Positions 19,597 through 43,681 are shown, counted from the first letter of the whole stretch. The stretch is 62,068 nt of DNA, filler included, from Collodictyon triciliatum (GCA_043381765.1; 7 parts of 7 records of this genome joined end to end with filler, not necessarily neighbours in it), one strand, 5' to 3'. Translations and numbers: made by a program. Notes: generated from the sequence alone by a model not told the origin.

Positions 19597-22500
19597 GTTG
19601 AAGACATCCCAGTGTGGATAACTCGGCTTGTCAAGCTCATGGACTTACAAATCGAGCACGGAGGTGCCATCAGCGTAAAGCGGTCTCCACGAGGAATCAC
19701 AGCTCTTCCATGCTGGACAAACCAGAATAAGCTTGATGGGATGAAGAAATCTATTTCTGAATCACTCAAAGGACTGGTATACTCAATCATTCACTCCAAT
19801 TGCAACATCACAACACTCGACTTATCCATGATTGAGGACTACAAGCAATATGAGAGCATCGATATATCCAACAATAAGGTACTTAACACGTTTACGTTAT
19901 CTGGACACTTTCAAGCAGACATATTAAAACACGGTATTTATCATAGCTATCGGCATTACCAGAAGATATCTCAGGACTGACCATTCTCAAGCGATTGAGA
20001 TTATCACACAACCAGGCATGTTTATCTATTATCTATACGAAATCAAACAATTTATCAACGTATCACTATTTTTTTAGGCTTAATCCCAGTACAATTGTAC
20101 CTATCGTCGGCGCATATCAAGTAACTATATATAAATCCAAAAAACACAATAGCTATTCGAACTTCCGGTCGGCATGTCACTACTAGGCAGCCTCAGTTAT
20201 GTAGAGCTTGGAAACAACAAGGTAACAACCATTATCAACGAATATTAGAGAATATGTAAAGAATCCCCAACAACAGCGCTTTCTTACACAACTCTATTTC
20301 AGTTCACCTCGGTTCCCTCGTGCCTCAGCGCACTGACAAGTCTACAAGGCCTTCTACTCCATAGCAACCCGGTATGTTGCGTGCATGAAGAATAGCAGCA
20401 CGTTTTTTTTTCTCATGAGATGTTATATATAAACGAGAATATAATTTTTTAATTCTAATATACGTATGATAGATTGAAGACATCCCAGTGTGGATAACTC
20501 ATCTCACAAAACTGAACGACTTACAAATCGAGCACGGAGGCGTTATTAGTGCAAAGCGGTCTCCACGAGGAATCACAGCTCTTCCATGCTGGACAAACCA
20601 GAATAAGCTTGACGGAATGAATTTATCTGTAGCTATGTCTCTTATGAAGTTGCAGTTCGTCAAGGTTCAATCTAATTGTGGCCTGGAAGACCTGTCGCCT
20701 CTCATTAACAGCTGGGTCGAATATGAAGTGTTTGATCTATCGCACAATAAGGTTTTTTCTCTACGTATCTAATTTTTAGCCTTTAATTACTTTTGCATCT
20801 TTTAATCTGAATCACACCCTCATTTACAGATTTACACTATCCCGGAAAACATATCTCTGGTCAAAAGCATGAAAAAGATTGAATTGAGTTTTAATAAAGT
20901 ATGCAATATGTTTGACTTAACTCATGAGCATTTATCCTTATTTGGCATACAAACTCTTATTCCTATGTCGAAGCATTTCAACCTTTTTTGTGTAAATTAT
21001 TATAGTTGACAAGTCTACCCACTTCTTTTTCGAAGCTAACACAGCTAGAGGTTTTGGTTTTGTCTAATAACAAGGTAGTGCTATTCCCGAATTATGAATA
21101 CATTTGACTATTGAAGGAATAAAATCTGACTGGAATATATATAACTGAAATTACTGCAAATGAATTACATGGCTACATTATAATTAACAACCCATTTTGT
21201 TGTCCTGAACCACTGATCTAAACAGCCAGTTTGATTTGATGAATTTTCTGTTTGAAGATTTTATTATATATTAAAAGATTATTAGCCCTAACATCTTTAT
21301 TTATGTTACCGAAGTTATCCGGACTTCCTAACTGTATATCCAACTTACGTGCTTTATCATCCTTTTTTTTAAACGGAAACGAGGTACTGCAATAATAGTC
21401 GCTCTTAACCCTTGTTTTCACATTTTTACCAATTCGATCAAAAGAAAATGAAATTTCATGGAACAATTTTTAACCCTAGGTAGAAGATATTCCGGTATGG
21501 ATAACTCACCTCACAAAGCTCATCGATTTTCAAATCGAACATGGAGGTGTTATTAGTGCAAAGAGGTCTCCGCGAGGAATCACGGCTTTGCCATGTTGGA
21601 TAAATCCTAAGAAATTTGATGGAATGAATAAGCCAATTTCAGAGTCACTCAAAGGACTGGTATACTCGATCATTCACTCCAATCGCAACATCACAACAAT
21701 CGACTCATCTATGATTGAGGACTACAAACAGTATGAGAGTATCGATATTTCAACCAATAAGGTGATTAACTATATTCTTTTTTTAAGTAAAAAGAAAAAT
21801 AACTTTAAGCATCAAGCACTGAACAAACTATAATAAATGACTAATGATCAAAAATGTGGTTTCTTTAGCTGTCCCAAATTCCTGAAGATTTTAAAAGACT
21901 TGCCATTCTAGAACGATTGATTCTCTCAAACAATGAGGTTTTTTTTTTATTGCTGGTCACTTCTGACTATCTTATATATTATAATTGCCAAAGTCTATTG
22001 CTTACCGATATAAAATATCAGCTCCATGAACTTCCTTCGGGTATATCTCTGCTGACAAACCTGTTACATATCAACCTTGATAGCAACAAGGTAATGATAC
22101 TGAGTAGTGGATTTATTAAACGAACGAATGAGCTTTTTTTTTTTTATTATTAAAAATAAAAAAAGAAAACAATTAATACGTCATTCTTAAAGAAATCCTT
22201 TCAAATTAGTTTACCTCTGTTCCAATGTGCCTGGGGACACTAACGAATCTTCACAAGCTTTCACTTCATAATAACACGGTACTACCTGATTTAAGTCACA
22301 TGCTGCGTGTATAAATATAATGGCTTGTGTGGTTGGGAATCGATGTGTCCTCATATTCCTCCTGACCTTTTAGATTGAAGACATCCCAGTGTGGATAACT
22401 CGCCTTGTCAAGCTCATCGACTTACAAATCGAGCACGGAGGCGCCATCAGCGTAAAGCGGTCTCCACGAGGAATCACAGCTCTCCCATGCTGGACAAACC

Positions 22501-25500
22501 AGAATAAGCTTGATGGGATGACTTTGTCTGTCTCAGAGTCACTCAAAGGACTGGTATACTCAATCATTCAATCCAACCGCAACATCACAACAATCGACTT
22601 ATCCATGATTGAGGACTACAAGCAATATGAGAGCATCGATATATCCACCAACCAGGTCATTTGAATTCATTTCCATTTATAAAAAAGAAAAATTCCCAAT
22701 ATTCGTTAATCTATTTCATTAGTAATTGATTGTAACTAACCCCTCTTTAAAAAATAAAATAAACAGATATCTGCATTACCATCAAACATATCAAGCTTGA
22801 CGAACCTCACATATCTCAGCATCAGCAACAACAAGGTAGATAAATATTGGAATACATATGCAGGTAATAGGATGCGTCGCACATCATAGATTATAGTGGA
22901 CTCACAAACGCATACACACTTCAGCTCGACACCTTTCCTGCAGCCATCTGCACGTTAACACTCATTGTATCACTTGATATATCCACCAACCAGGTCATTT
23001 AAAGCTCTTTTGTTTAATTTTACTCTATGAAAAAAAAATACAACAAAATTCCTGATGCATAATTATACTCAACGGGTGCTAACACATAAAAAATTGTAAA
23101 TATTAATCAATCTAGATATCTGGTCTACCTCAAGAAGTTTCAACGCTGACAAATCTGACCAAACTTAACATTAGTGGCAATGAGGTTAAAGATAGAAACT
23201 AAAGGAGAGTCAATTTACATGATAAATCAGGGATATTTACTTATAAAAATCATAGTTTAAGTTTGTGCCTGAGGTTATTTGTCGGTTTAAGGGATTGAAG
23301 GCTCTTAACCTCTCAAACAACCAGGTTTTTTTTATTCATGTCACTCACCTGATAACTATTAACACGTTTGATTGATTAATTTCAAAGACTACGCCATTAA
23401 AGCGATATGATTTATCGCCGATTGAACTATTATCTACTTATTACTTATGATTATGGGCGCATGTGCTTCATGACTTTTTGTGTCAGATTACTTATTATTC
23501 AGAATGGTTCGAGTGCATGACTTCTCTGGAAGAGTTAGGAATGTCTGGGTGCCGGGTTGGTTTTTTTCTTCCTTTTAATTTGTGTGAGATGATGGATATT
23601 TTGGCTTTGGTTCGCTAGATGCCGGGTGAGTTATATTTTCAGGGTCAATATCTTTGAATGGAAATTAAAATCAAATTATATTGCTAAAATGACAACCCGA
23701 CAAATAGTTTACCAGTGTACCATACGTTATCGCCAAGCTGGAATGTCTCCAGCGTCTGGATATGTCAAACAATCAGGTTCTTATTTGTCTTTTTTTTTTT
23801 TAAAAAAAAAAAAGAAAACTAAATATTTCAATCTGGCGATTCAATTTATCCAATCAAAATTTTATTGTCGTATAGATAGAGAAACTGCCATTATTTCTGG
23901 GAGCAATCAAAGGCCTCAGAAGTGGACTGATAATAGTTGGAAATCCAACCAAAAATATACCCGAAAACATTATTCAACAGAGCTCTGAAGCAGTCCACGA
24001 TTATTTAGCCGCCTCGATAGATGGCACATCGAAATGGTCTAAAGGAAGACTACTGTTGCTTGGGGAGGGTGAGACAGGAAAAACAACCCTTACAAAGTCT
24101 CTTAGACAATCATCTTCTCAATTTCAGTCAACAATTGACGAAAAACGACAAAGAACTGATGGTATTGAACAAGTTGAGCTTAACGTCCATGACCTTGAAC
24201 TTCATGAAAGAGAAGCTCCAATCTCTGTTCAGGTTTGGGACTTCGGTGGTCAGGAGGAATTTCAAGTAACACATCCATTCTTCTTATCATTCGGTGCGCT
24301 TGTTCTGATTCTCTACAGACTCGACCGAGGAAAGGACAAGAACAACCTCAGAAGATGGCTAAAAATGCTGGATGATTTTGCTCCTGGATCCAAGATTATA
24401 CTTATCGGAACCCATCTCGATGAAGAAGTAATCAAATGTAGGCAAGAGATGGAGAAGGAAATTAAGGACATAAAAGAAAGGCATGTTCGTCACACATTCA
24501 TCGAAACAGACCTCATGGTGAGCAACAAGGATGGAACAAGTATTCTTGAATTGAAAAAAACCATTTATCAAGGGATGATGCAACTAGACATTCTGAATAA
24601 GGAAGTTCCAAAAGTATATATTGGGTTGAAAGATTACATAGAGTCTAAATCACACCGTATGAAATATGAAAACATCACCGATATATACCATTATGCTGAA
24701 AAGCAACTAAAAATAGATCAGAACCAATGCGAAAGCGCCCTTCAATTTTTACACGACCTCGGATCGATTGTGTGGTACTCTTCACTGAAAAACTCCAAGG
24801 GCGTCGTATTCTTAGACCCCGTTTTTCTCATCAATATTTTCCGTTGTGTCTTTAGTTTCAAAGGCATTGGAAAGAATACGAACGGGATAGTCATTATTGA
24901 AAAGTTGAAAAATAAAATAACATCAGAACTTCAAACCAAATTGGATGATGCGTTTTTAGGCACAATAATTGATATTTTTGATCACTTTGGCCTAGGGATA
25001 CAATACAACAAAGAGTGTATTGTGTTTCCTTCACTTATGGAGAAATGCAAAAATGTTACTGTGCTTTGGAGTGAAAATGCAGAGCCTCATTGCACATCTG
25101 AAAATCATGTCGAAATGAAAGCCGATAGTGAAATTCAGCTTTCAGATAAAAGCAGTGTAATCACACAAGCCCTTCGCCTCACAAAAGGAGCACCCATGGA
25201 TGTTCAATACGAGGATGTCTTTTTTAAGGATGCTGCTCTCATACATGTTCGAGCATCGCCAAACCAAAGGCCGAGTGAATTTCAATTGTCTCACGGTGAA
25301 GATTTTATTGTTTTTATACGCATGTATAGTAATGTCATTTCTGTTAAAATCAGGAAGTATGTTACTCGCTCTCATGACATCGATGAATCTGTATCTACTT
25401 TCGATCTACTTGATTTCTTTATTCAAAAGATATCGTCTCTCAGAGCTAACTTCATTCGCTCATGTGTATTTGAATGTCCAATATGTCGAGTGGAAGGACT

Positions 25501-28390
25501 GGTAAGTCGTGTAGAAACCCAAACGAAGCTGAATGAATCAGATAATGTGAAATGTGAAAAAGGGCATCTGCCTTGCCCAGACGCCATTAGACGGGGACGC
25601 GTCTTTATGGAGCAAGGTAGGGTCTCTAATTGAGCATTTAACATCCATGTCATCGTAAAATATCTTTTCTTGATTTATTTTTTCTCATATTTTGATCATA
25701 TGAAGGATCTGAACAATAAATCCAATAATTAAGGTTCATCAAAATATAGGTTATGAATTACCTAATAAGAAGAAAAAACCCCCAAGAGAAAAAAATGAGA
25801 GTAGAGTTGAAATCATCTCCATTGACCGTGAGCTGAATCATATATGGATTGAATGTCAGATTGAATTACTCGAACACATCGGACAAGGGTCTTTTGGACG
25901 TGTATATTTAGCAAAATATGCTAAAAAGAGAGCCGTTGTTAAGATACAAACCGTCGCTGAGAATGAAAAATACGATTTGAATGAAGTTGTTCAATCTCTT
26001 ATTTACGAAAGCCATTATCTGTATGAATGCCGAGAATGTAAGCATATAGCGAGGTTATTTGGTGTTTACCGTAAGGACGATGAATTCTACATGATTATGG
26101 AAAATGCGGGCATTTCACTGAAAAACTTGTTGGAAAGACAGAACATATGGCTTCACGTTGATCAAATCGCAAGCTACTCAAAACAAATATGCCAGGGACT
26201 AATTTTCATGCATTCAAAGAACCTATATCACGAGGATTTGAAGGCGGATAATGTTGCTGTTATCGATGAAGTTGTAAAAATAATTGATTTTGGCATTGTC
26301 AGTCGCCGCAGTCCACAAAAAGTCGGTTCCAGCCTACCCTCTCGATTCGGTGAAGATAAGCACTATGGAACATGTAACTGGCAAGCACCAGAAATTCATG
26401 ATGTCGTATCTAAATCACTGTTAGAAGAGCATGATGATGAAAACGTTGGTCATCGTGGAGAATCGAGCAATGTCTATGCATTGGGGATGCTTATTTGGTT
26501 CATGTTTTCGGGTATGGAACCATTCAAAAATGAGCTGGAATCTCAAAATTTGACCATCAAAGGGTCACGACCCGTGATACCAGAAACGGTCCCACCTGAG
26601 TTCAAACACTTAATCAAAGTCTGCTGGAAACAAAACTACAAACTTCGCCCCAGCCTGAAGCGCGTTTCAAAATACTTAGACTTAATATCGACGAGCGAAA
26701 CAGATGCTCCTGTAAAAATGATGGATTTGCTTCCTTCGAAGTATTCATATCTATTGGATATGTACCTTGGTGAGTTTGTTGAGTGGCTTACGGACCACAG
26801 ATTTTCAGATTTGGCGGATAAGGTGTTCAGGCAGAATTGGGGAGAAATACGTAGTGTTGGTGAAAAATTTAAAAGAATTCACCATGAAACATTGATAGCA
26901 GCATACCACTTGAGTCCGGGTGATGTGAGTTCATTTCTAAAATTATCAGAGGAATATGGTTACGAAAACAGCTCCAGTCGGGAAAGAAAGGAAGTCAAAA
27001 AATTTACCCATTCTCAATTAATAGAACATATTAAGCTGAAATCTGACGAAAGTTCAAACAGATTGCTGGAGAAAGTTAAAACTTTAAGACTCAATGGTGA
27101 CATTATATCCAAACTCGACCAAAAATCTGTATGTGATAAACATTCTGTTTCAAAACAAGAAATACTCTTTTTTGTTCAAGTATTCAATGAAAAAATCAAA
27201 CGAGAGGAACAGACGAGACCCCTCTATTCCGTGCGAGCGAGTATTCAATATTTACCTATGGATTGTGAAATAAGTCTAGCAACTTCCCTGTGTATCACTA
27301 AAATGAAAGAATTTGAAAGGATTCCCGAGTCTATAAAGACTCTGACCCAACTGAAGCATCTCTCTTTGCACTCGAACAAGGTGATAGATTCAAATTAATG
27401 AATTCTGAATTACTTTCTGCCTTTTTAACGATGAAATATTATGCTTAATTTTTCTAGCTGGTGTCTTTTCCAGAACAATGCCTCGCCTTGACAAATTTAG
27501 AGTTCCTGGATTTATCTGATAACAAGGTTTTTAATAGACTAATCGGAATAAACATAATTGAGAACCAGGCTCCAGCTTGTCTGTCAGTATGTCATATATT
27601 AATAATAGTTAAATAAAACAATCTTACTAGATATCTTTCCTGCCTCCTGAGATATCTGTGTTAGCTAGCCTCACTCACCTGATGATTTATGGAAACTCGG
27701 TTTGTTTTCGATGCTATATCATTTTACAAATTTTATTTTATTTTAGTTTAGTTTATTTAACTATTTATTTAATCCGATAGCCGATTTATTTCATTTTATT
27801 TTGTTTATTTTTTATTTAATCTAATTGTCCATTTTTAGATATATGAAATACCCAGAGAAATATCTACACTTTCGAATTTAAGAGAACTTGACATGTTCAA
27901 CCTGCTGGAGGAGACCAGTATAAAAAGAATTCCACAAGGAATCACGAATCTCCCCTGCTGGATGCAACTTGCCACGACGATGCATAAAGGAATGACACTA
28001 TATGACCATGTACCATTTTTATAAATAGACAAATGCATGGTTGTCATTTCAAATGCATATATTGATTCATAACTGTCTTTATTTTATCTCGATTCGCTAT
28101 AGGTCGAGCCCCTTCAATCATACTCGTCCTCGATGACAGATGACCAGCAGAGCTCATCTTCATTCGACCACTTTTCGAAACCAGTAAAAGATATGGACAG
28201 CACTGAACTTTGCTCGTATCTGGAAAAAACTAAAGTCCTTGATGATTTTGCAACTATTATGCGAAGTATTAAAGCCACTGGGAAACAATTCTTGGAGTTG
28301 ACGGAAAAAGACTTAGTTTCCTTTCCATTTCAGTTAAAGGAAATTCAATCTAAGCTAATTATGAGTTTGATTGAGAAGGCCAAACGATGA
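19597..28390 (+). CDS. Roco protein: LRR array-Roc GTPase-COR-TKL-type kinase-SAM-like-LRR-SAM; 5' partial; 25 exons reconstructed
   Basis: 17 exons of 69 nt each encoding one LRR; four 279-282-nt exons; Roc GEGETGKTT, RTDGI, VWDFGGQEEF, IGTHLD; COR ALQFLHDLG, VFLDP, CPIC..CEKGH; kinase GQGSFGRV, VVK, HEDLKADN, DFG, GTCNWQAPE; C-terminal SAM-like VKDMDSTELCSYL...TGKQFLELTEKDL. Confidence 0.93.
23558..23619 (-). mobile_element. Antisense truncated LINE 3' end inserted at a Roco LRR splice donor, 8-bp TSD TGCCGGGT
   Basis: Reverse complement TCTAGCGAACCAAAGCCAAAATATCCATCATCTCACACAAATTAAAAGGAAGAAAAAAA aligns with 28971-29028; TSD at 23550-23557 and 23620-23627. Confidence 0.85.
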
Positions 28391-28481
28391 TAAATTCATC
28401 TGTTTCCTCCACTTTGATTTCTCGACCATAAGACCAAGCTTTCCATCAGCCTCTTTTACCTCGTGATTTCTCTGATAATTA

Positions 28482-29030
28482 GTTCTGGAAAAGAATAAAA
28501 CAAAACATTTCACCATTTCTTGAATGTAAAGTTGAGTATATAAAACTCCTATCTTTAGTCCTAGTGCGGCAAATGATTTTCTCGAGAGAAACTACATCAA
28601 ATCTGCATCCAAATGCAAAAACATTCTGGGCAGTGACGCGAGGCCATTTGCTATGGACTGTGTGGATAGCGCGCATATACTCACACAAAGCAAGACTCAA
28701 CAACCAGCCACCCATTCCTGATAATAGGCTGAATGACATCATACAAATCCCTTCTCTCAACAGCTTCCTTCGCCACCTGCACGTTCTCTACTACTCAGAC
28801 TCTGTGAGAAGAGACATGTGGAAAGAGACTGAGAAAGAGATTCAACCTCGCCTTGTATCTCTCGTGCAGGCGCAAGACCCAGGCTACAGGCCAAACTGCA
28901 GGATGCAATTCCTGATTACCGACTACTTCTCCGCCACCCAGCCACCAAGTAGCGTCCATGCATACAAAGGCTAGCAACCAAAGCCAACATCTCCACCATC
29001 TTGCACAAAATTGAAAGGAAGACTAAAAAG
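28482..29030 (+). mobile_element. 3' portion of non-LTR retrotransposon (L1/Tx1-like ORF2 C-terminus plus short 3' UTR)
   Basis: ORF FWKRIKQNI...FWAVTRGHLLWTVWIAR (W-x-x-W-x-x-R motif typical of L1-clade ORF2 ends) stops at 28974, followed by the ~50-nt tail found in three other TSD-flanked copies. Confidence 0.72.
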
Positions 29031-29062
29031 ATATCATGTTTCAAACTAAGAGATAAAGTAAA

Positions 29063-29250
29063 GCGGTTCTTTTTTTTTGAACGCTCCTGGTGGCTATGGT
29101 AAAAGATTCATAATCAATTCGATACTTGCAAGAGTCAGGGAATATAAACAAATTGTCGTCGGAGCGGCATCATCAGATATAGCTGTAACTATAAAGCAAG
29201 GTAGAAGAACAACTGGCTCTGTAATTAAGATTCTATTGGATATTTCAACT
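29063..29250 (+). mobile_element. Degenerate Helitron-type PIF1 helicase fragment
   Basis: FFLNAPGGYGKRFIINSILARVR...IVVGAASSDIAVTIKQGRRT resembles the Helitron motif FLDAPGGTGKTFL...VASSGIAA.LL.GGRT with disabling substitutions. Confidence 0.8.
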
Positions 29251-29350
29251 NNNNNNNNNNNNNNNNNNNNNNNNNNNNNNNNNNNNNNNNNNNNTTAATT
29301 AATTAANNNNNNNNNNNNNNNNNNNNNNNNNNNNNNNNNNNNNNNNNNNN

Positions 29351-30905: not shown

Positions 30906-30979
30906 TGGTCCTGCCCGGGCTCGAACCGGGGACCTTGCGCATGTGAGGCGCACGTGATAACCAACTACACCACAGAACC
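30906..30979 (-). tRNA. tRNA-Val(CAC)
   Basis: Reverse complement GGTTCTGTGGTGTAGTTGGTTATCACG-TGCGC-CTCACAT-GCGCA...CCCGG-TTCGAGC-CCGGG-CAGGACCA followed by TTTTT. Confidence 0.96.
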
Positions 30980-38957: not shown

Positions 38958-39129
38958 AAGAAAGAAAGAAAAGATAAATATACAAGCAGGTAAATAGACA
39001 TGAGAAAAAAATGACAGTTGGTCAAAAGGNNNNNNNNNNNNNNNNNNNNNNNNNNNNNNNNNNNNNNNNNNNNTTAATTAATTAANNNNNNNNNNNNNNN
39101 NNNNNNNNNNNNNNNNNNNNNNNNNNNNN

Positions 39130-39212: not shown

Positions 39213-42200
39213 TACGATGAGTGGTTTGTCAGAATGGACTTGACCCATATGTTAAACTTGTAAGTCATGGTATGATTCATTTGTTGCATATTGCTGAGAG
39301 CGGCGATCAAAGGTGGAATGCAGTACACAGGCAGTGCCTTCACAGTCCCTTCGATCGAGGAATCGGGTACTTGGGCAATGGATTTCTCTAGTAGCATCTT
39401 TGTAGCATGTCAATGACATAGCAGTTTGTTTGTTTGTTTGTTTTTAAAAAAAAAGAGGGATACCATGAAAAAAAAAAGACAGTTTTTTGTGGAGGATGGC
39501 GGCCTGCCAAAGATTGGAAATATACACGGTCTAATACAAGTGTAATGCAGGAACCTTGTTTTTGGATTGGACTGCAGCTGCGATGATGTTACAAGCCGTC
39601 GAATCCACTTGGATGAAGGCTTCTGCTTCAGATGTGAGATTTGTGTCTTGCAAAACAATTTGTTGACCAAAAGACATCGATTCCTTCTGCGTTTCCATTG
39701 CTTGGGGTTCCATCGTCATCGTATCGATATCCTCGTTGCCAACAACCATCTAGTTTTATAACAAATTCATTAGTCATGTGATATCAGCGAAGCATAGTGC
39801 TATACAATTATCAACACTCACGAATTCTTTTTTTAAAAAAACCTCACATGTTTTTGGGATGAGAGAACCTTCCCAGTATCCTTCACTTGTCCAAATTCCT
39901 GTACAGTTTAGTGTAAATATATTTATCTAATCTAATCATTTCTTCCTTTTTTTTCATTTTAGAAAAAAAAATAACGATGCAAACTAAATATAGGAATATT
40001 TGGGATATCTAAGGTTTTAATTGAGTTTCAGAATTACTTTGACTTTTTCCTTTTTGGCTACAAGACTTATGTCTTTGACATGAAGTTGGATTCTGGATAT
40101 GTATTTTTCACCGTCCATAATATTCTGTGTCGTATCAAAGTGTTGACATTTTGAATTTCTTTTTTTTTTTAAAAAAAAAGAAAAACATATTTCAGAAAGC
40201 AACATGCGCTATTACGGTATTATTAGCAACTGAACTAATGAAGAAATTAAAAAGACCTTTAGTGCGTATCTGGGAAGTGTAAAATCTCCATAGATAAGAC
40301 ATATTTTCGACGGATGAATTGGTTTGAAAGCAAATATGCCGATTGATTTGACTGAATCTGAATTTTCAACCTTTACTATCACTTTAGCGTATGAGGGCGT
40401 TAAATCTGAACTCCCCAGCTTGTGGTTCCAGACAAATACAACACCAAAATGAGAGAGGCCGTAAAGCGTGACCGAATTCGTCTCCTGATATGAAAATGAA
40501 ATGAAATAAATAAATGCATTAATATATAAGTGAATCTTTACCCTTAAAGTCAGGGTGGTCGTCGCTTCGCGACGTAAAGCATGTCAATTAAATTGGAACA
40601 GACTTGGTCATAATGTGCGTGCAAATAACGGGCTCCGCTATGAGACATAAAATCTAAACCACAAAGAATTTAATGACGTATAAGCAACGAAGTGTCAAAG
40701 TACTGAATACGATGATACATCCGCACACAAATGAAATGATTCATGGGTAGTATCTGATTTCAAATATTTAATACTTGCAATTGAAGCATTAGCTTTCCTG
40801 TGGCTGGGGCTGAGCGACCAGAGAGATATGATTTCGTCTCGTGTGGCTGAAAAAAGGTATTTTCCGTTTTCTGTTGTCGCCAGAGCTGTGATTTTGGAGG
40901 AATGGCCGGGTATTTTATGGAGAACCTTGCATCATTTAAGTATTAAATAAATCAATTTAGTGCCTCTCTGGGTCGAATGCACTTAAACAAAAAGGAAAAA
41001 AAAGCATATTTTCCTGATATTTTTGATACCAACCTTTCTTGAAACGATATCGTAAATTCGAATAGACGAGTCGGCCACTATCAGTTGTGAGTCGTTAGAC
41101 GATAGTAAAATCCTGCTTACAGGGGTTTGTTCTTGGAAAGTACTGGTTGACAGAGGTATTTAATTAATTTTTTTCATAAAATAGGAGGCGTAGTTGTGAA
41201 TATGTAAGAACAAGTCAAAGCTTTTTTTTTTTTTTTGGAGATGCAAAAAAAAATTTTTCTAAAAGACTTAACATATCTGAGAAATTAAACATTAAAACAT
41301 TGAAAACATTTATTTGCTTCTTTATGAGCATGTAACCAACTGAGCAATTTGGCCATTCAGTAGATTCCATTGGATGATAGTTCCATCCATTGAAGAGGTG
41401 AACAAAAACTGCTTCGAGCGAGAGAATACGATGTCGGTTACCCTGTGGTGGATGTCAAGTGCTTTAGTTCTCTCAATTTGCAGATGGGAAAAACTCAATC
41501 TTGAGACATTTACAAATAGTAAAGAGAAAAAAAAAAGTAAATAAAGAGAACATGATTGATATGAAACCTGCATATTCGAAAATATCAAAGAAATGAGGAG
41601 ATAAAAACATCTGGTCTCAAAGGCATAGTATTTCAACAGGGACACGGGTCTCAAATTCGAGTGAGAATAGCAAGAAAGGGAAGGAGGAAACCCGAGGCTG
41701 ACTTTTTCGTGTGCCCTTTCATCTTTGACCCGAGAGACTGTTTGAACGAGCCGGTGGAGAAGTCGTAGAGAACCACGTTTCCATGGTAGGCACCGGCGGC
41801 AATCAAGGGCTGATTCGAAGTGGCAGCAGAGCCTTCGGAGGACGCCTTGTGGGAAGTGAGGAGGGCAAGGAAGAAAGCGCGAGGCGAGTGAGTGAGTGAG
41901 TGAGTGAGTGAGTGATTCGGCCGATCAGGCTGCTGGCAGGCAAAGCGAAAGCCACGCCGCGTTACATGAGCCAAAGGGAAGAGAGAAGAACCGCATAGGC
42001 GTCGCCCCAGGCCAGGCAGGAGATGTTTCTGGTGAGATGGTGGGGATCGTCAAGGACGCGCAGGAAGGAGCACGAGTCTTTGAGAGAGTAGCAGCTGATC
42101 AGGCCGTTCGCCCCGCAGACCACGAGGGTGGACAGATCGGGGCTGAGGCAGGCCAGGGAGATGCCGGACGGTTTGATGCCGGCCACCTCAGAGGCTGCCG

Positions 42201-42222
42201 GCTTGGGGGCTTTGGCGGCCAT
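39213..42222 (-). CDS. WDR43: WD repeat protein 43 / Utp5 (SSU processome), 3' partial
   Basis: N-terminal WD40 repeats (ISCLAWG; IAAGAYHGNVVLYD; GHTKKVTDIVFS..LFTSSMDGTIIQWN) and Utp12-type C-terminal domain LLEKSI...IEGTVKALP...WVKSILTNHSSY. Confidence 0.82.
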
Positions 42223-43681
42223 TGCTCTCTTGTCCTTGGGTGGGACGTTTGTCAGTTGCTCAAAGTCTCCCTCTGTCTCTCTGTCTCTCTTTCTATCTCT
42301 CTTCGGCAGCACGGTTCACGGCTCACGAGCGTGTTGGGCTCCGGCCAACTGCTTTTTTTTTTTGTTGTTGTTTTTTTTTGTTTTTTGTTTTTTGTTTTTT
42401 TTTGTGGTCTGCTTTATGATTGGCCTCCAAGCAAGGATTCGAAGGGTATTTGTTCGTTGCGCTGTTGCGATATTGGTCGGCGTGGCTGGTGGCAGCTACA
42501 TCCTGGGCATGACCCACTCAATAAAAAAAATGCCTCGCCTTGCAGAGTCTGCATCGATGGAATCAAAGGGAAATTAAATTAGGATTAGTGCTGCTCTGCG
42601 AGAGAGATGGGCATCTAGAAAGCTACCCGTGGCTCTGGAACGTCAAGCGAGACGTCCGTTTTTAGTTGGCCGGCTGGCAAACATTCGATGGTCTGGATAC
42701 GCTAGATTTCTTTGCCGCGGAGCGCCGTTCTATTTTGAATGCATCCGTATATCACTACCTGATACGCATCGGCCTTTGATACAAACGTTGCGGCAAATAC
42801 TGGGAGAAGGAAAGCTTAATCTTGTTTTCTATTTGCTTTCCTGGTCGAATCGAGACTCGGGCGCTGTGGCAAATATTTCCCCCGATTAAATGCTTCTGCC
42901 TCATTTGCGTCACCAAGGTGAAGATTACAACCAAGTGCAATTGCCATCATGCCTGATTTACTCGCAATAACCCTCCATTCTATGAAATGCATCGCCTCCG
43001 TGTGCAAATCTTAGTTATGACCGATACAAATGCCTGCATCGCAACGTAACATGCTGCACATGTGAAACGCATCCTCGTCGGATGTGGCACACACACCCCG
43101 CCGATGGCATGAATGGGTTCATACGCAGGAAAATAACTAGCGTCATGAGGCAGAAAAAGGTTCGTGCATGATTTTGCACCTTTGCCATCGGATTCGGGCC
43201 AAGTGCTGCGGGAAGGAGCTCGTTGCGCGTAAGCCCAACCTTCGCAAGTACCCAGATCATGAATGAAGTAAAAGCACCCTACTCGACTGGTTTTTCGATA
43301 GAGGCTGGATTCCTTTTTATCAATGCCGCCCGTCCTTTTGGTTCGCAACTTGATAGGACTGCGGCACTCGAGCGGGTTGGGTGCTTCAAGAGACAGCATG
43401 ACGGGGTCGCCAAGCAAAATCAAACCCACGGAGCGCAACACGAACGACAGAATTTGACACTCTCTGGGTTCTGACGTCCAGGCACAGACACGCCCAGCAA
43501 AAAGAATAAGACGCAGGGAAGAGCGGATGCTGGCCCAGTCGGGGTGAGTCGGAAGCGTGTGGATACACAGCTACTCGATAGGCGAGAGAGATCTGAGTGC
43601 AAGCAAGAACAAATGAAAGAAAAATAGAGAAGGAAAAAGGGAAAGGAAAAAGGGAAAGGAAAATGAACGAACCAAAGCAGG

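Follow-up and report, generated by a model that had tools for sequence, protein, structure and literature searches.

A Roco gene of Collodictyon triciliatum (GCA_043381765.1), located on the plus strand of the 62,068-nucleotide stretch of DNA that was analyzed as a whole (the window), carries leucine-rich repeats (LRRs) on separate exons of exactly 69 nucleotides (nt). The locus raises the question whether such exon modularity serves diversification by splicing or recombination or is a mere by-product of repeat growth, and the gene offers a test case for it. A first-pass annotation of the sequence had proposed that any of the LRR exons can be skipped, duplicated, or swapped in frame, giving a combinatorial receptor-diversification system. 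We consider a plainer answer likely: the locus would be an intact and expressed gene, its 5' end cut by the assembly, for a cytosolic Roco (LRRK-like) kinase, with constitutive splicing and an exon layout that stems from tandem duplication.

The exon layout described in the first-pass annotation was examined exon by exon. All 15 starts given for 69-nt exons were correct, each exon being open, encoding 23 amino acids of LRR shape, and following an AG. The donor is GT in 14 of the 15; the remaining exon, 19947-20015, is followed by GC. As claimed, all 15 are bounded by phase-0 introns at one position of the repeat, directly after the Asn-x of LxxLxLxxNx, which is the intron site of the LRR array. 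The proposed order of one large and three small exons, three times over, followed by one large and six small exons, also held, with large exons of 282, 279, 282, and 282 nt, and so did the assignment of Roc-COR and kinase to single exons (23876-25616 and 25750-27380), with one phase-1 intron between them. When the whole window was scanned for an AG, a 69-nt open frame, and a GT or GC, there were 136 candidates on the plus strand and 131 on the minus strand. The LRR pattern was fitted by 17 of the 136 and by 0 of the 131, and all 17 lie within the Roco gene: the 15 exons above and two more, 27458-27526 and 27631-27699, 3' of the kinase. Two exons have to be added to the earlier description, a fifth, half-length exon of the large type at 27839-28009 and a final SAM-like exon at 28103-28390. 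Every exon of the LRR array has a length divisible by three, and all array introns are in phase 0. The four 94-residue modules encoded by the large exons are exceptions to the rule of one repeat per exon, as each holds several repeat-equivalents on one exon; the large exons form a family of direct repeats with 63-93% identity. The resulting gene model has 25 exons and 24 introns with a single open frame of 2042 codons that ends in TGA. The introns measure 68-240 nt and have a GC content of 0.28, compared with 0.40 in the exons.

The gene sits on a contig of 9679 nt (window positions 19572-29250), whose boundary at 19572 removes the 5' end of the gene; the encoded protein therefore has at least 2042 amino acids. 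Because L1, the first exon on the contig, has an AG acceptor, further exons must lie upstream, off the contig. Evidence from RNA came from contigs of two public runs, X1 and X2 (shares 0.07 and 0.06), which were guessed to be RNA; the contigs are spliced and thus derive from RNA. The exons are as follows (L, large; s, small), each with the evidence for it.

19597..19878, plus strand: L1, large exon, 282 nt, 94 amino acids, irregular LRR module with core RSPRGITALPCW; AG acceptor, junction 19878-19947 in a spliced contig
19947..20015, plus strand: s1, 69-nt LRR exon, LSALPEDISGLTILKRLRLSHNQ, GC donor; GC-AG intron 20016-20152 seen in an RNA contig
20153..20221, plus strand: s2, 69-nt LRR exon; scan and RNA junctions
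20303..20371, plus strand: s3, 69-nt LRR exon; scan and RNA junctions
20473..20751, plus strand: L2, large exon, 279 nt, mosaic; junctions 20371-20473 and 20751-20830
20830..20898, plus strand: s4, 69-nt LRR exon; scan and RNA junctions
21006..21074, plus strand: s5, 69-nt LRR exon; scan, X2 record 12 covers 21006-21195
21315..21383, plus strand: s6, 69-nt LRR exon; scan
21480..21761, plus strand: L3, large exon, 282 nt; repeat family, junction 21761-21869
21869..21937, plus strand: s7, 69-nt LRR exon, paralogue of s1; 65% nt identity
22022..22090, plus strand: s8, 69-nt LRR exon, paralogue of s2; 58% nt identity
22210..22278, plus strand: s9, 69-nt LRR exon, paralogue of s3; 67% nt identity, junction 22278-22374
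22374..22655, plus strand: L4, large exon, 282 nt, differs from L1 at 21/282 positions; repeat family
22767..22835, plus strand: s10, 69-nt LRR exon; scan
22925..22993, plus strand: s11, 69-nt LRR exon; scan
23116..23184, plus strand: s12, 69-nt LRR exon; scan
23256..23324, plus strand: s13, 69-nt LRR exon; scan
23487..23555, plus strand: s14, 69-nt LRR exon, degenerate, without Pro and with the end G-C-R; scan and profile
23708..23776, plus strand: s15, 69-nt LRR exon; scan
23876..25616, plus strand: last N-terminal LRR, Roc, and COR on a single exon with phase-1 donor; Pfam, motifs, X1 contigs without joints
25750..27380, plus strand: kinase, linker, and first C-terminal LRR on a single exon; Pfam, motifs
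27458..27526, plus strand: s16, 69-nt LRR exon 3' of the kinase; scan and profile
27631..27699, plus strand: s17, 69-nt LRR exon 3' of the kinase; scan and profile
27839..28009, plus strand: 171-nt exon with the first half of the module (...RIPQGITNLPCW...), closes the C-terminal LRR block; module hidden Markov model, independent E-value (i-E) 2.7e-06
28103..28390, plus strand: last exon with linker, SAM-like domain, and stop; weak SAM_2 match, similar ends in Diphylleia P0121 and P0234

The predicted gene product reads, in order, LRR, Roc, COR, kinase, LRR, and a SAM-like end. Its earlier designation as a Roco protein was borne out in Pfam by Roc (E 6.5e-21, residues 58-182 of the exon product), by COR-A directly C-terminal of it (E 1.6e-10, residues 245-363), and by Pkinase (E 8.3e-40) on the following exon, the two frames being joined by the phase-1 intron. 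No separate match to COR-B was obtained at E <= 0.01 in the Pfam scan. The nucleotide-binding motifs GEGETGKT, DFGGQ, and THLD of the Roc domain are intact; the THLD form of the G4 motif also occurs in LRRK2. Among solved structures, LRRK2 (residues 1331-1681) was the best match to the Roc-COR stretch 53-396 (E 6.4e-24), followed by a bacterial Roco (6hlu, 3dpu) that bears the name "Rab family protein" in its deposition. A protein search with Roc-COR at near lengths returned only prokaryote-like Rocos with ~25% identity. The kinase shows the motifs GQGSFG, AVVK, HEDLKADN (non-RD), DFG, and APE, with the VAIK-like Lys present. Its closest solved relatives are RIPK1 (4.7e-19), TTK (about 5e-19), and STK10, and no LRRK was found among the best 60 matches listed. 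The kinase was probably joined independently. In the visible part of the protein, the N terminus being off the contig, Pfam gave no match to WD40 or ankyrin, and no armadillo repeats were seen there either. The match to SAM_2 at the C terminus is weak (E 0.0019, 18.8 bits versus a curated cut-off of 20.5), and Pfam has no match in the large exons. No segment resembling a membrane span was found in the visible protein, which looks cytosolic because its most hydrophobic 19-residue stretch falls inside COR.

Eight of the 24 introns were confirmed by RNA contigs; the other 16, the kinase, and the C-terminal exons have no contig cover. The confirmed junctions are 19878-19947, 20015-20153 (the GC-AG intron), 20221-20303, 20371-20473, 20751-20830, 20898-21006, 21761-21869, and 22278-22374, where the GC-AG intron 20016-20152 is represented by a joint 20013>20151 (+2). 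X2 record 11, a 368-nt contig free of mismatches in its listed piece, links the end of L1 to L2 by way of s1, s2, and s3, in genomic order. The exon skipping suggested earlier was not borne out: RNA contigs that bridge exons keep the genomic order and skip none, and no exon-skipping joint between canonical sites occurred among the X1 and X2 contigs, which cover 8 of the 24 introns and lose rare variants. X1 contigs on the Roc-COR exon show no joints, as predicted for a single exon. They differ from the genomic sequence by ~2-5%, with 20 listed sites in 23931-25404, of which 9 are silent and 11 replacing; at one replacing site, 25385, a Glu codon has become a stop. The differences indicate additional transcripts from a close paralogue or a decaying copy. 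X2 record 12 extends from s5 into the following intron (21006-21195), which at 240 nt is the longest of the array, and represents a retained intron. Translation that continues from s5 into this intron (21075-21195) meets an in-frame stop within a few codons; the Diphylleia relatives, too, commonly retain introns. At the 5' end, X2 record 9 has 217 unmatched nt upstream of 19596, a length that fits three more 69-nt exons plus the end of another large exon.

Three further signals in the RNA contigs stood out. X1 record 1 (519 nt) aligns first with 19627-19878, next with 22246-22277, and finally from 22374 onward. Exon skipping was dropped as the cause of the jump from 19878 to 22246, since the jump ends inside an exon where there is no AG acceptor; the lengths (252+175+32+60 = 519) and the zero depth past 22487 fit another similar unit or a paralogue. 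In both runs, an L1-like exon carrying L4 bases at 19800-19801 was present at a depth of 26-39, compared with 7.6 at the junction of L1 and s1 (19689 is a further site noted here). This points to additional copies of the large exon beyond the contig, or else to a recombinant allele. A T/A-rich, low-complexity intron stretch at 22133-22173 reached a contig depth of 1660-3290 in both runs, most likely by cross-mapping of simple sequence.

The two kinds of exon have evolved differently within the gene. Between the large exons L1 and L3, and L3 and L4, synonymous divergence (dS) was about 0.96-0.97 and the ratio ω of nonsynonymous divergence (dN) to dS was 0.09-0.10; the large exons are under strong purifying selection. 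For the small exons of unit 1 versus unit 3, dS was 1.25 and dN 0.36. The positional paralogy claimed for these two units was confirmed, as s1/s7, s2/s8, and s3/s9 share 65, 58, and 67% nt identity, compared with 25-61% for other pairs. Analysis by position class showed that the small exons vary between their conserved Leu positions, as had been said: the proportion of nonsynonymous differences (pN) was 0.11 at scaffold positions, 0.49 at the five concave x positions (proportion of synonymous differences (pS), 0.47), and 0.31 at the rest. The concave-face residues of the small exons thus change at the pace of silent sites. For dN/dS at surface positions, which the first-pass annotation had put forward as a check, ω was near 1 at the concave face, a value that leaves relaxed and diversifying selection unseparated.

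L1 and L4 are much closer to each other than to L3, with dS 0.16 and differences at 21/282 nt. The similarity of the large exons stops at the splice sites. In all seven pairs of flanking introns tested, local alignment scores were within those of shuffles, and the introns downstream of L1 and L4 scored 6 versus a shuffle mean of 9.6. Recent duplication of whole units was therefore dropped as the source of nucleotide conservation among the large exons, the introns being unrelated. L2 is a mosaic whose first 150 nt are near L1/L4 and whose second half is divergent. Because L1 and L4 are nearly alike amid unrelated surroundings and only the first 150 nt of L2 share this likeness, we infer gene conversion confined to the homologous exon.

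The 94-residue product of L4 was compared with 1.84 billion representative proteins, giving 33 matches at E <= 0.001. Five were set aside as likely false matches driven by repeats: P0235, P0253, P0256, and P0261 (Big_12, fn3, or FG-GAP) and P0243 (no Pfam family). The remaining matches contain the same module with the rough consensus ...ELPxxITxLxxLxxLxIExxGxxxVxRAPxGITxLPCW...SEALxxLxLY...W...xDxSxNx. Of 23 family clusters looked up, 16 were transcripts of Diphylleia rotans and 7 were NCBI or JGI contigs of 517-952 nt. In the D. rotans proteins the module alternates with 2-4 plain LRRs. The three best relatives of Roc-COR (31-36% identity) are also from Diphylleia and carry DUF4062 and an AAA-type NTPase after COR, with no kinase; other family members couple the LRR array to a kinase, Roc, a RING finger, or a SAM-like end. 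Module cores are spaced by 162-163 residues in the present gene and by about 140, 163, or 185 residues in the relatives, in steps of one LRR. Among the relatives, the number of plain LRRs between modules thus changes by whole repeats over evolutionary time.

Among the 49 family proteins examined, 21 end within 70 residues after the last LxxLxLxxNx, and in 15 of these 21 a V stands directly after Asn-x and is followed by a non-LRR tail. Such tails read as translation through a phase-0 GT intron, and the relatives would therefore have the same intron position. Spliced and unspliced family pairs occur, e.g. P0237 and P0267, and several of the V-tail proteins come from short genomic contigs. Because the plan of one repeat per exon is common to the Diphylleia relatives, it would be old, predating the split from Diphylleia. 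In residues ~600-650 of P0123 and P0233 (Diphylleia), the two isoforms differ by a 49-residue insert inside the module; in this relative, in contrast to the Roco gene of the window, an intron seems to interrupt the module.

An AlphaFold2 model of P0234, a Diphylleia protein 42% identical to L4 over residues 2-93, had a mean pLDDT of 85.5 and formed one solenoid. Strands are 23 residues apart in the plain repeats. Inside the module, which also contains two short helices, they occupy residues 94-96, 107-109, 139-141, and 163-165, at intervals of 13, 32, and 24 residues, and the module is predicted to remain within the solenoid. The best Foldseek matches of the model were LRR proteins (Leptospira LIC10831, SHOC2) with TM values of 0.34-0.39 and root mean square deviations of 8-11 Å; values this low would be expected if the module bends the regular LRR curve. 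In P0234, as in the Roco gene, the LRR block ends with a half module ahead of the SAM-like end. A metagenome pattern scan with the four modules of the window gave 540 pattern matches, none of which was confirmed. The sole match of a degenerate DNA pattern for R[AS]PxGITxLPCW, contig L001, has frames without LRRs and was rejected as a chance match. A literature search on Roco, LRRK, or leucine-rich repeat in Diphylleia returned LRRK2/Roco papers only, none naming Diphylleia among the matches listed.

In the account that we favor, a long N-terminal LRR solenoid would precede the Roc GTPase, COR, and a Ser/Thr kinase, with a short C-terminal LRR block and the SAM-like end after the kinase. The LRR super-repeat, a 94-residue module on a large exon plus three (once six) 23-residue LRRs on 69-nt exons, would have arisen by growth in which units of exon plus intron were duplicated in tandem. 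This layout is probably old and may still permit gain or loss of whole repeats and exon-confined gene conversion over evolutionary time, and its LRR exons would be spliced constitutively in genomic order, as far as seen. The conserved modules would hold the scaffold, and the fast-changing concave faces of the small-exon repeats may bind a partner or ligand. Such binding could be relayed to the Roc-COR switch and the kinase, with oligomerization mediated by SAM; partner binding, signaling, and the role of SAM are predictions from the domain content.

Five points weigh against this account. Junction support covers only 8 of the 24 introns and comes from assembled contigs, which are blind to rare isoforms. 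The contig that enters the intron after s5 indicates that splicing is not always complete, and the differences on Roc-COR in X1 mean that part of the RNA signal stems from a paralogue or decaying copy rather than from this locus. The concave ω of ~1 is derived from 15 codons at saturated dS, where relaxed and diversifying selection are inseparable. Finally, the structure is that of a homologue with 42% identity over the module, not of this protein.

Of the alternatives, germline exon shuffling like that in Ectocarpus survives best, and we regard it as unlikely. It would make the gene a member of a fast birth-and-death family of candidate immune receptors, in which LRR exons are moved, inverted, copied between loci, and lost at a high rate. 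The variable triplets would be exchanged by unequal recombination or gene conversion, with the conserved large exons providing the homology anchors. The closeness of L1 and L4 next to unrelated small exons and introns, the mosaic L2, and the L1-like exon with L4 bases at 19800-19801 in the reads agree with such a process, as does the variation of module spacing by whole LRRs in the relatives, whose LRR arrays are joined to kinase, Roc, RING, SAM, or DUF4062 plus AAA NTPase. The non-RD kinase (HEDLKADN), closest to RIPK1 among solved kinases, can be counted on the same side; non-RD kinases are reportedly linked to pathogen receptors. However, the order of exons in units 1 and 3 has been kept through dS ~1, the large exons are under strong purifying selection, and no LRR exon that is a relic, inactivated, or on the reverse strand was found in any intron of the locus. 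When a profile built from the 17 small exons was run against all six reading frames of the window, 19 matches reached i-E <= 0.0013, namely the 17 exons, the LRR at 27321-27380, and the start of the exon at 27839; all other matches had i-E >= 0.84, and none of the 131 minus-strand candidates was LRR-like. Relic or reverse-strand LRR exons in introns are described as the hallmark of shuffling in Ectocarpus (PMC3341825, available part), and this sign of ongoing shuffling is therefore absent at the locus.

A reading that unites several of these elements is more doubtful. It posits a family of lineage-specific intracellular LRR sensors made of anchor modules and fast single-exon LRRs, with sets of LRRs reassorted by recombination between anchors and possibly by exon choice. 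The anchors would be kept alike by exon-confined conversion, and kinase, STAND NTPase, RING, and SAM would be interchangeable ends. If true, it would amount to a germline cassette-exchange system for recognition surfaces, a plan so far undescribed. A loose likeness exists to the variable lymphocyte receptors (VLRs) of lampreys, which follow a logic of constant caps and variable cassettes.

Combinatorial alternative splicing, in which in-frame 69-nt exons are skipped or chosen so that one gene yields a repertoire of LRR surfaces, is improbable. The structural half of the original proposal stands, as the lengths (multiples of three) and the symmetric 0-0 phases permit any LRR exon to be dropped or doubled in frame, and the concave-face residues are highly variable. 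Precedents have been reported in the available parts of studies on alternative LRR-exon transcripts of Ectocarpus ROCO genes (PMC11378527) and on NLRP3 (PMC6642158), and the Diphylleia family genes have many Trinity isoform numbers, up to i25. Combinatorial use itself was not seen. No X1 or X2 contig skips a whole exon between canonical sites, the jump from 19878 to 22246 fitting another unit or a paralogue. In 10 clusters of Diphylleia isoforms the differences were truncated ends, a 49-residue insert resembling a retained intron, a 15-residue gap, and a 17-residue swap, with no 23-residue cassette difference among them. With neither skipping contigs nor relic exons nor cassette isoforms in Diphylleia, the notion of a combinatorial receptor-diversification system lacks support.

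A non-functional remnant or an assembly artefact, i.e. a collapsed or chimeric repeat family on a short unplaced contig, is brought to mind by the contig size of only 9679 nt among many equal-sized pieces joined by linkers, by the high-copy repeat and PIF1-helicase fragment at the contig end, and by the related transcript with a stop codon, but is very improbable given the frame open through 25 exons with canonical splice sites, the mismatch-free spliced contig from L1 to L2, the ω of 0.09 on the large exons, and four units that differ throughout and hence are not a collapsed repeat.

Linkers consisting of N44, TTAATTAATTAA, and N44 occur in the window at 9687-9786, 19472-19571, 29251-29350, 39030-39129, 48794-48893, and 58555-58654. 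Their period is ~9.77 kb, and the pieces between them fall steadily in length from 9685 to 9661 nt. The window looks like a chain of size-sorted unplaced contigs joined by a stop-codon linker, and adjacency across the linkers is therefore biologically meaningless. The 3' end of the contig that carries the gene (28483-29250) is a high-copy transcribed repeat, with a summed contig depth of 2400-3100 at 28624-28946 in both runs and many variants. The same contig end contains a fragment of a PIF1-like helicase at 29062-29250 (Pfam 3.4e-08), and repeat and fragment together may represent a Helitron-type element. The Rfam scan of the window detected two tRNA genes on other contigs, at 7550-7621 (plus strand) and 30906-30979 (minus strand) with 51 and 61 bits, respectively, and nothing beyond these. 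A SAC-phosphatase-like open reading frame on another contig (45964-46431) gave no match when searched. Base composition is markedly patchy from contig to contig. At 8495-9730 and 41908-44572, otherwise AT-rich contigs contain GC-rich stretches (0.51-0.53) in which both strands have open frames, and in one of the two a Myb-like repeat was recognized by eye beside low-complexity runs. A run of 582 N at 17935-18516, inside a contig, is an assembly gap or a withheld stretch.

If the favored reading of an intact, constitutively spliced Roco kinase gene holds, the locus adds a further independent LRR array with one repeat per exon and uniform intron phase to those of brown algae, Tetrahymena, and vertebrate NLRs. 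The case comes from a poorly sampled, deep eukaryotic lineage and concerns an LRRK-like kinase. It brings to light a conserved 94-residue LRR module that lies outside every Pfam model, and it provides a natural contrast within a single gene between a rigid scaffold exon and fast-changing exons with a predicted role in binding.

Comparison with known systems places the gene as follows. Diphylleia proteins (P0121-P0123, P0234, P0236, P0242, P0244, and P0254; EukProt EP00002) share the module with 36-45% identity, alternating with plain LRRs, as well as Roc-COR with 31-36% identity, a SAM-like C terminus, and an intron after Asn-x that is implied by the retained-intron tails. Differences are the DUF4062 and AAA-type NTPase in place of the kinase in three Roco relatives and the 2-4 plain LRRs between modules. 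The order LRR-Roc-COR-kinase is shared with LRRK2 and other Roco kinases. Unlike LRRK2, the present protein shows no ankyrin, armadillo, or WD40 repeats in its visible part, ends in LRRs and a SAM-like domain, and has a kinase nearer to RIPK1/TTK.

For the systems with LRR exons, the comparison follows the available portions of the cited papers. The ROCO genes of brown algae (Ectocarpus, Saccharina, and others) have 72-nt LRR exons and the domain order LRR-ROC-COR only, and exon shuffling and alternative transcripts have been reported for them (PMC3341825, PMC11378527). As in the present gene, each N-terminal LRR is encoded by a short exon whose length does not vary, the introns share one phase and one position in the repeat, and the residues between the conserved Leu positions are variable; the algal genes were proposed as candidate receptors. 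In contrast, the unit measures 69 nt in Collodictyon and 72 nt in the algae, and the introns are in phase 0 after Asn-x, whereas the algal exon follows GxxP...LxxNxLx in phase 2 (PMC11378527). Kinase, C-terminal LRRs, and SAM-like end are found only here, as is the 94-residue large-exon module after every third repeat; intronic relic or reverse-strand LRR exons are absent from this locus, and its nearest relatives are transcripts of Diphylleia rotans. In Tetrahymena, nearly 50,000 exons measure exactly 90 bp, and phase-2 introns separate more than 96% of these exons (PMC6564038). These LRR genes are likewise protist arrays formed by clonal duplication of exon-intron units with uniform intron phase, and some are fused to kinases; they differ in exon length and phase (90 bp and phase 2 versus 69 nt and phase 0), and "Roco" does not appear in the available text of PMC6564038. 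Vertebrate NLRs such as NLRP3 also have frame-preserving LRR exons with a fixed border, so that exon loss keeps frame and fold (PMC6642158, PMC11352923). The NLRP3 exons of 171 bp hold two repeats of 28-29 residues, and skipping of exon 5 was shown experimentally, whereas the Collodictyon exons hold one 23-residue repeat each, with no skipping seen. Brown-alga ROCOs, Tetrahymena, and human NLRs thus already exemplify the principle of one LRR per exon. The novelty of the Collodictyon gene lies in its lineage, in a 69-nt phase-0 unit bordered after Asn-x, in the combination with a kinase and a SAM-like end, and in a conserved, undescribed module inserted at regular intervals.

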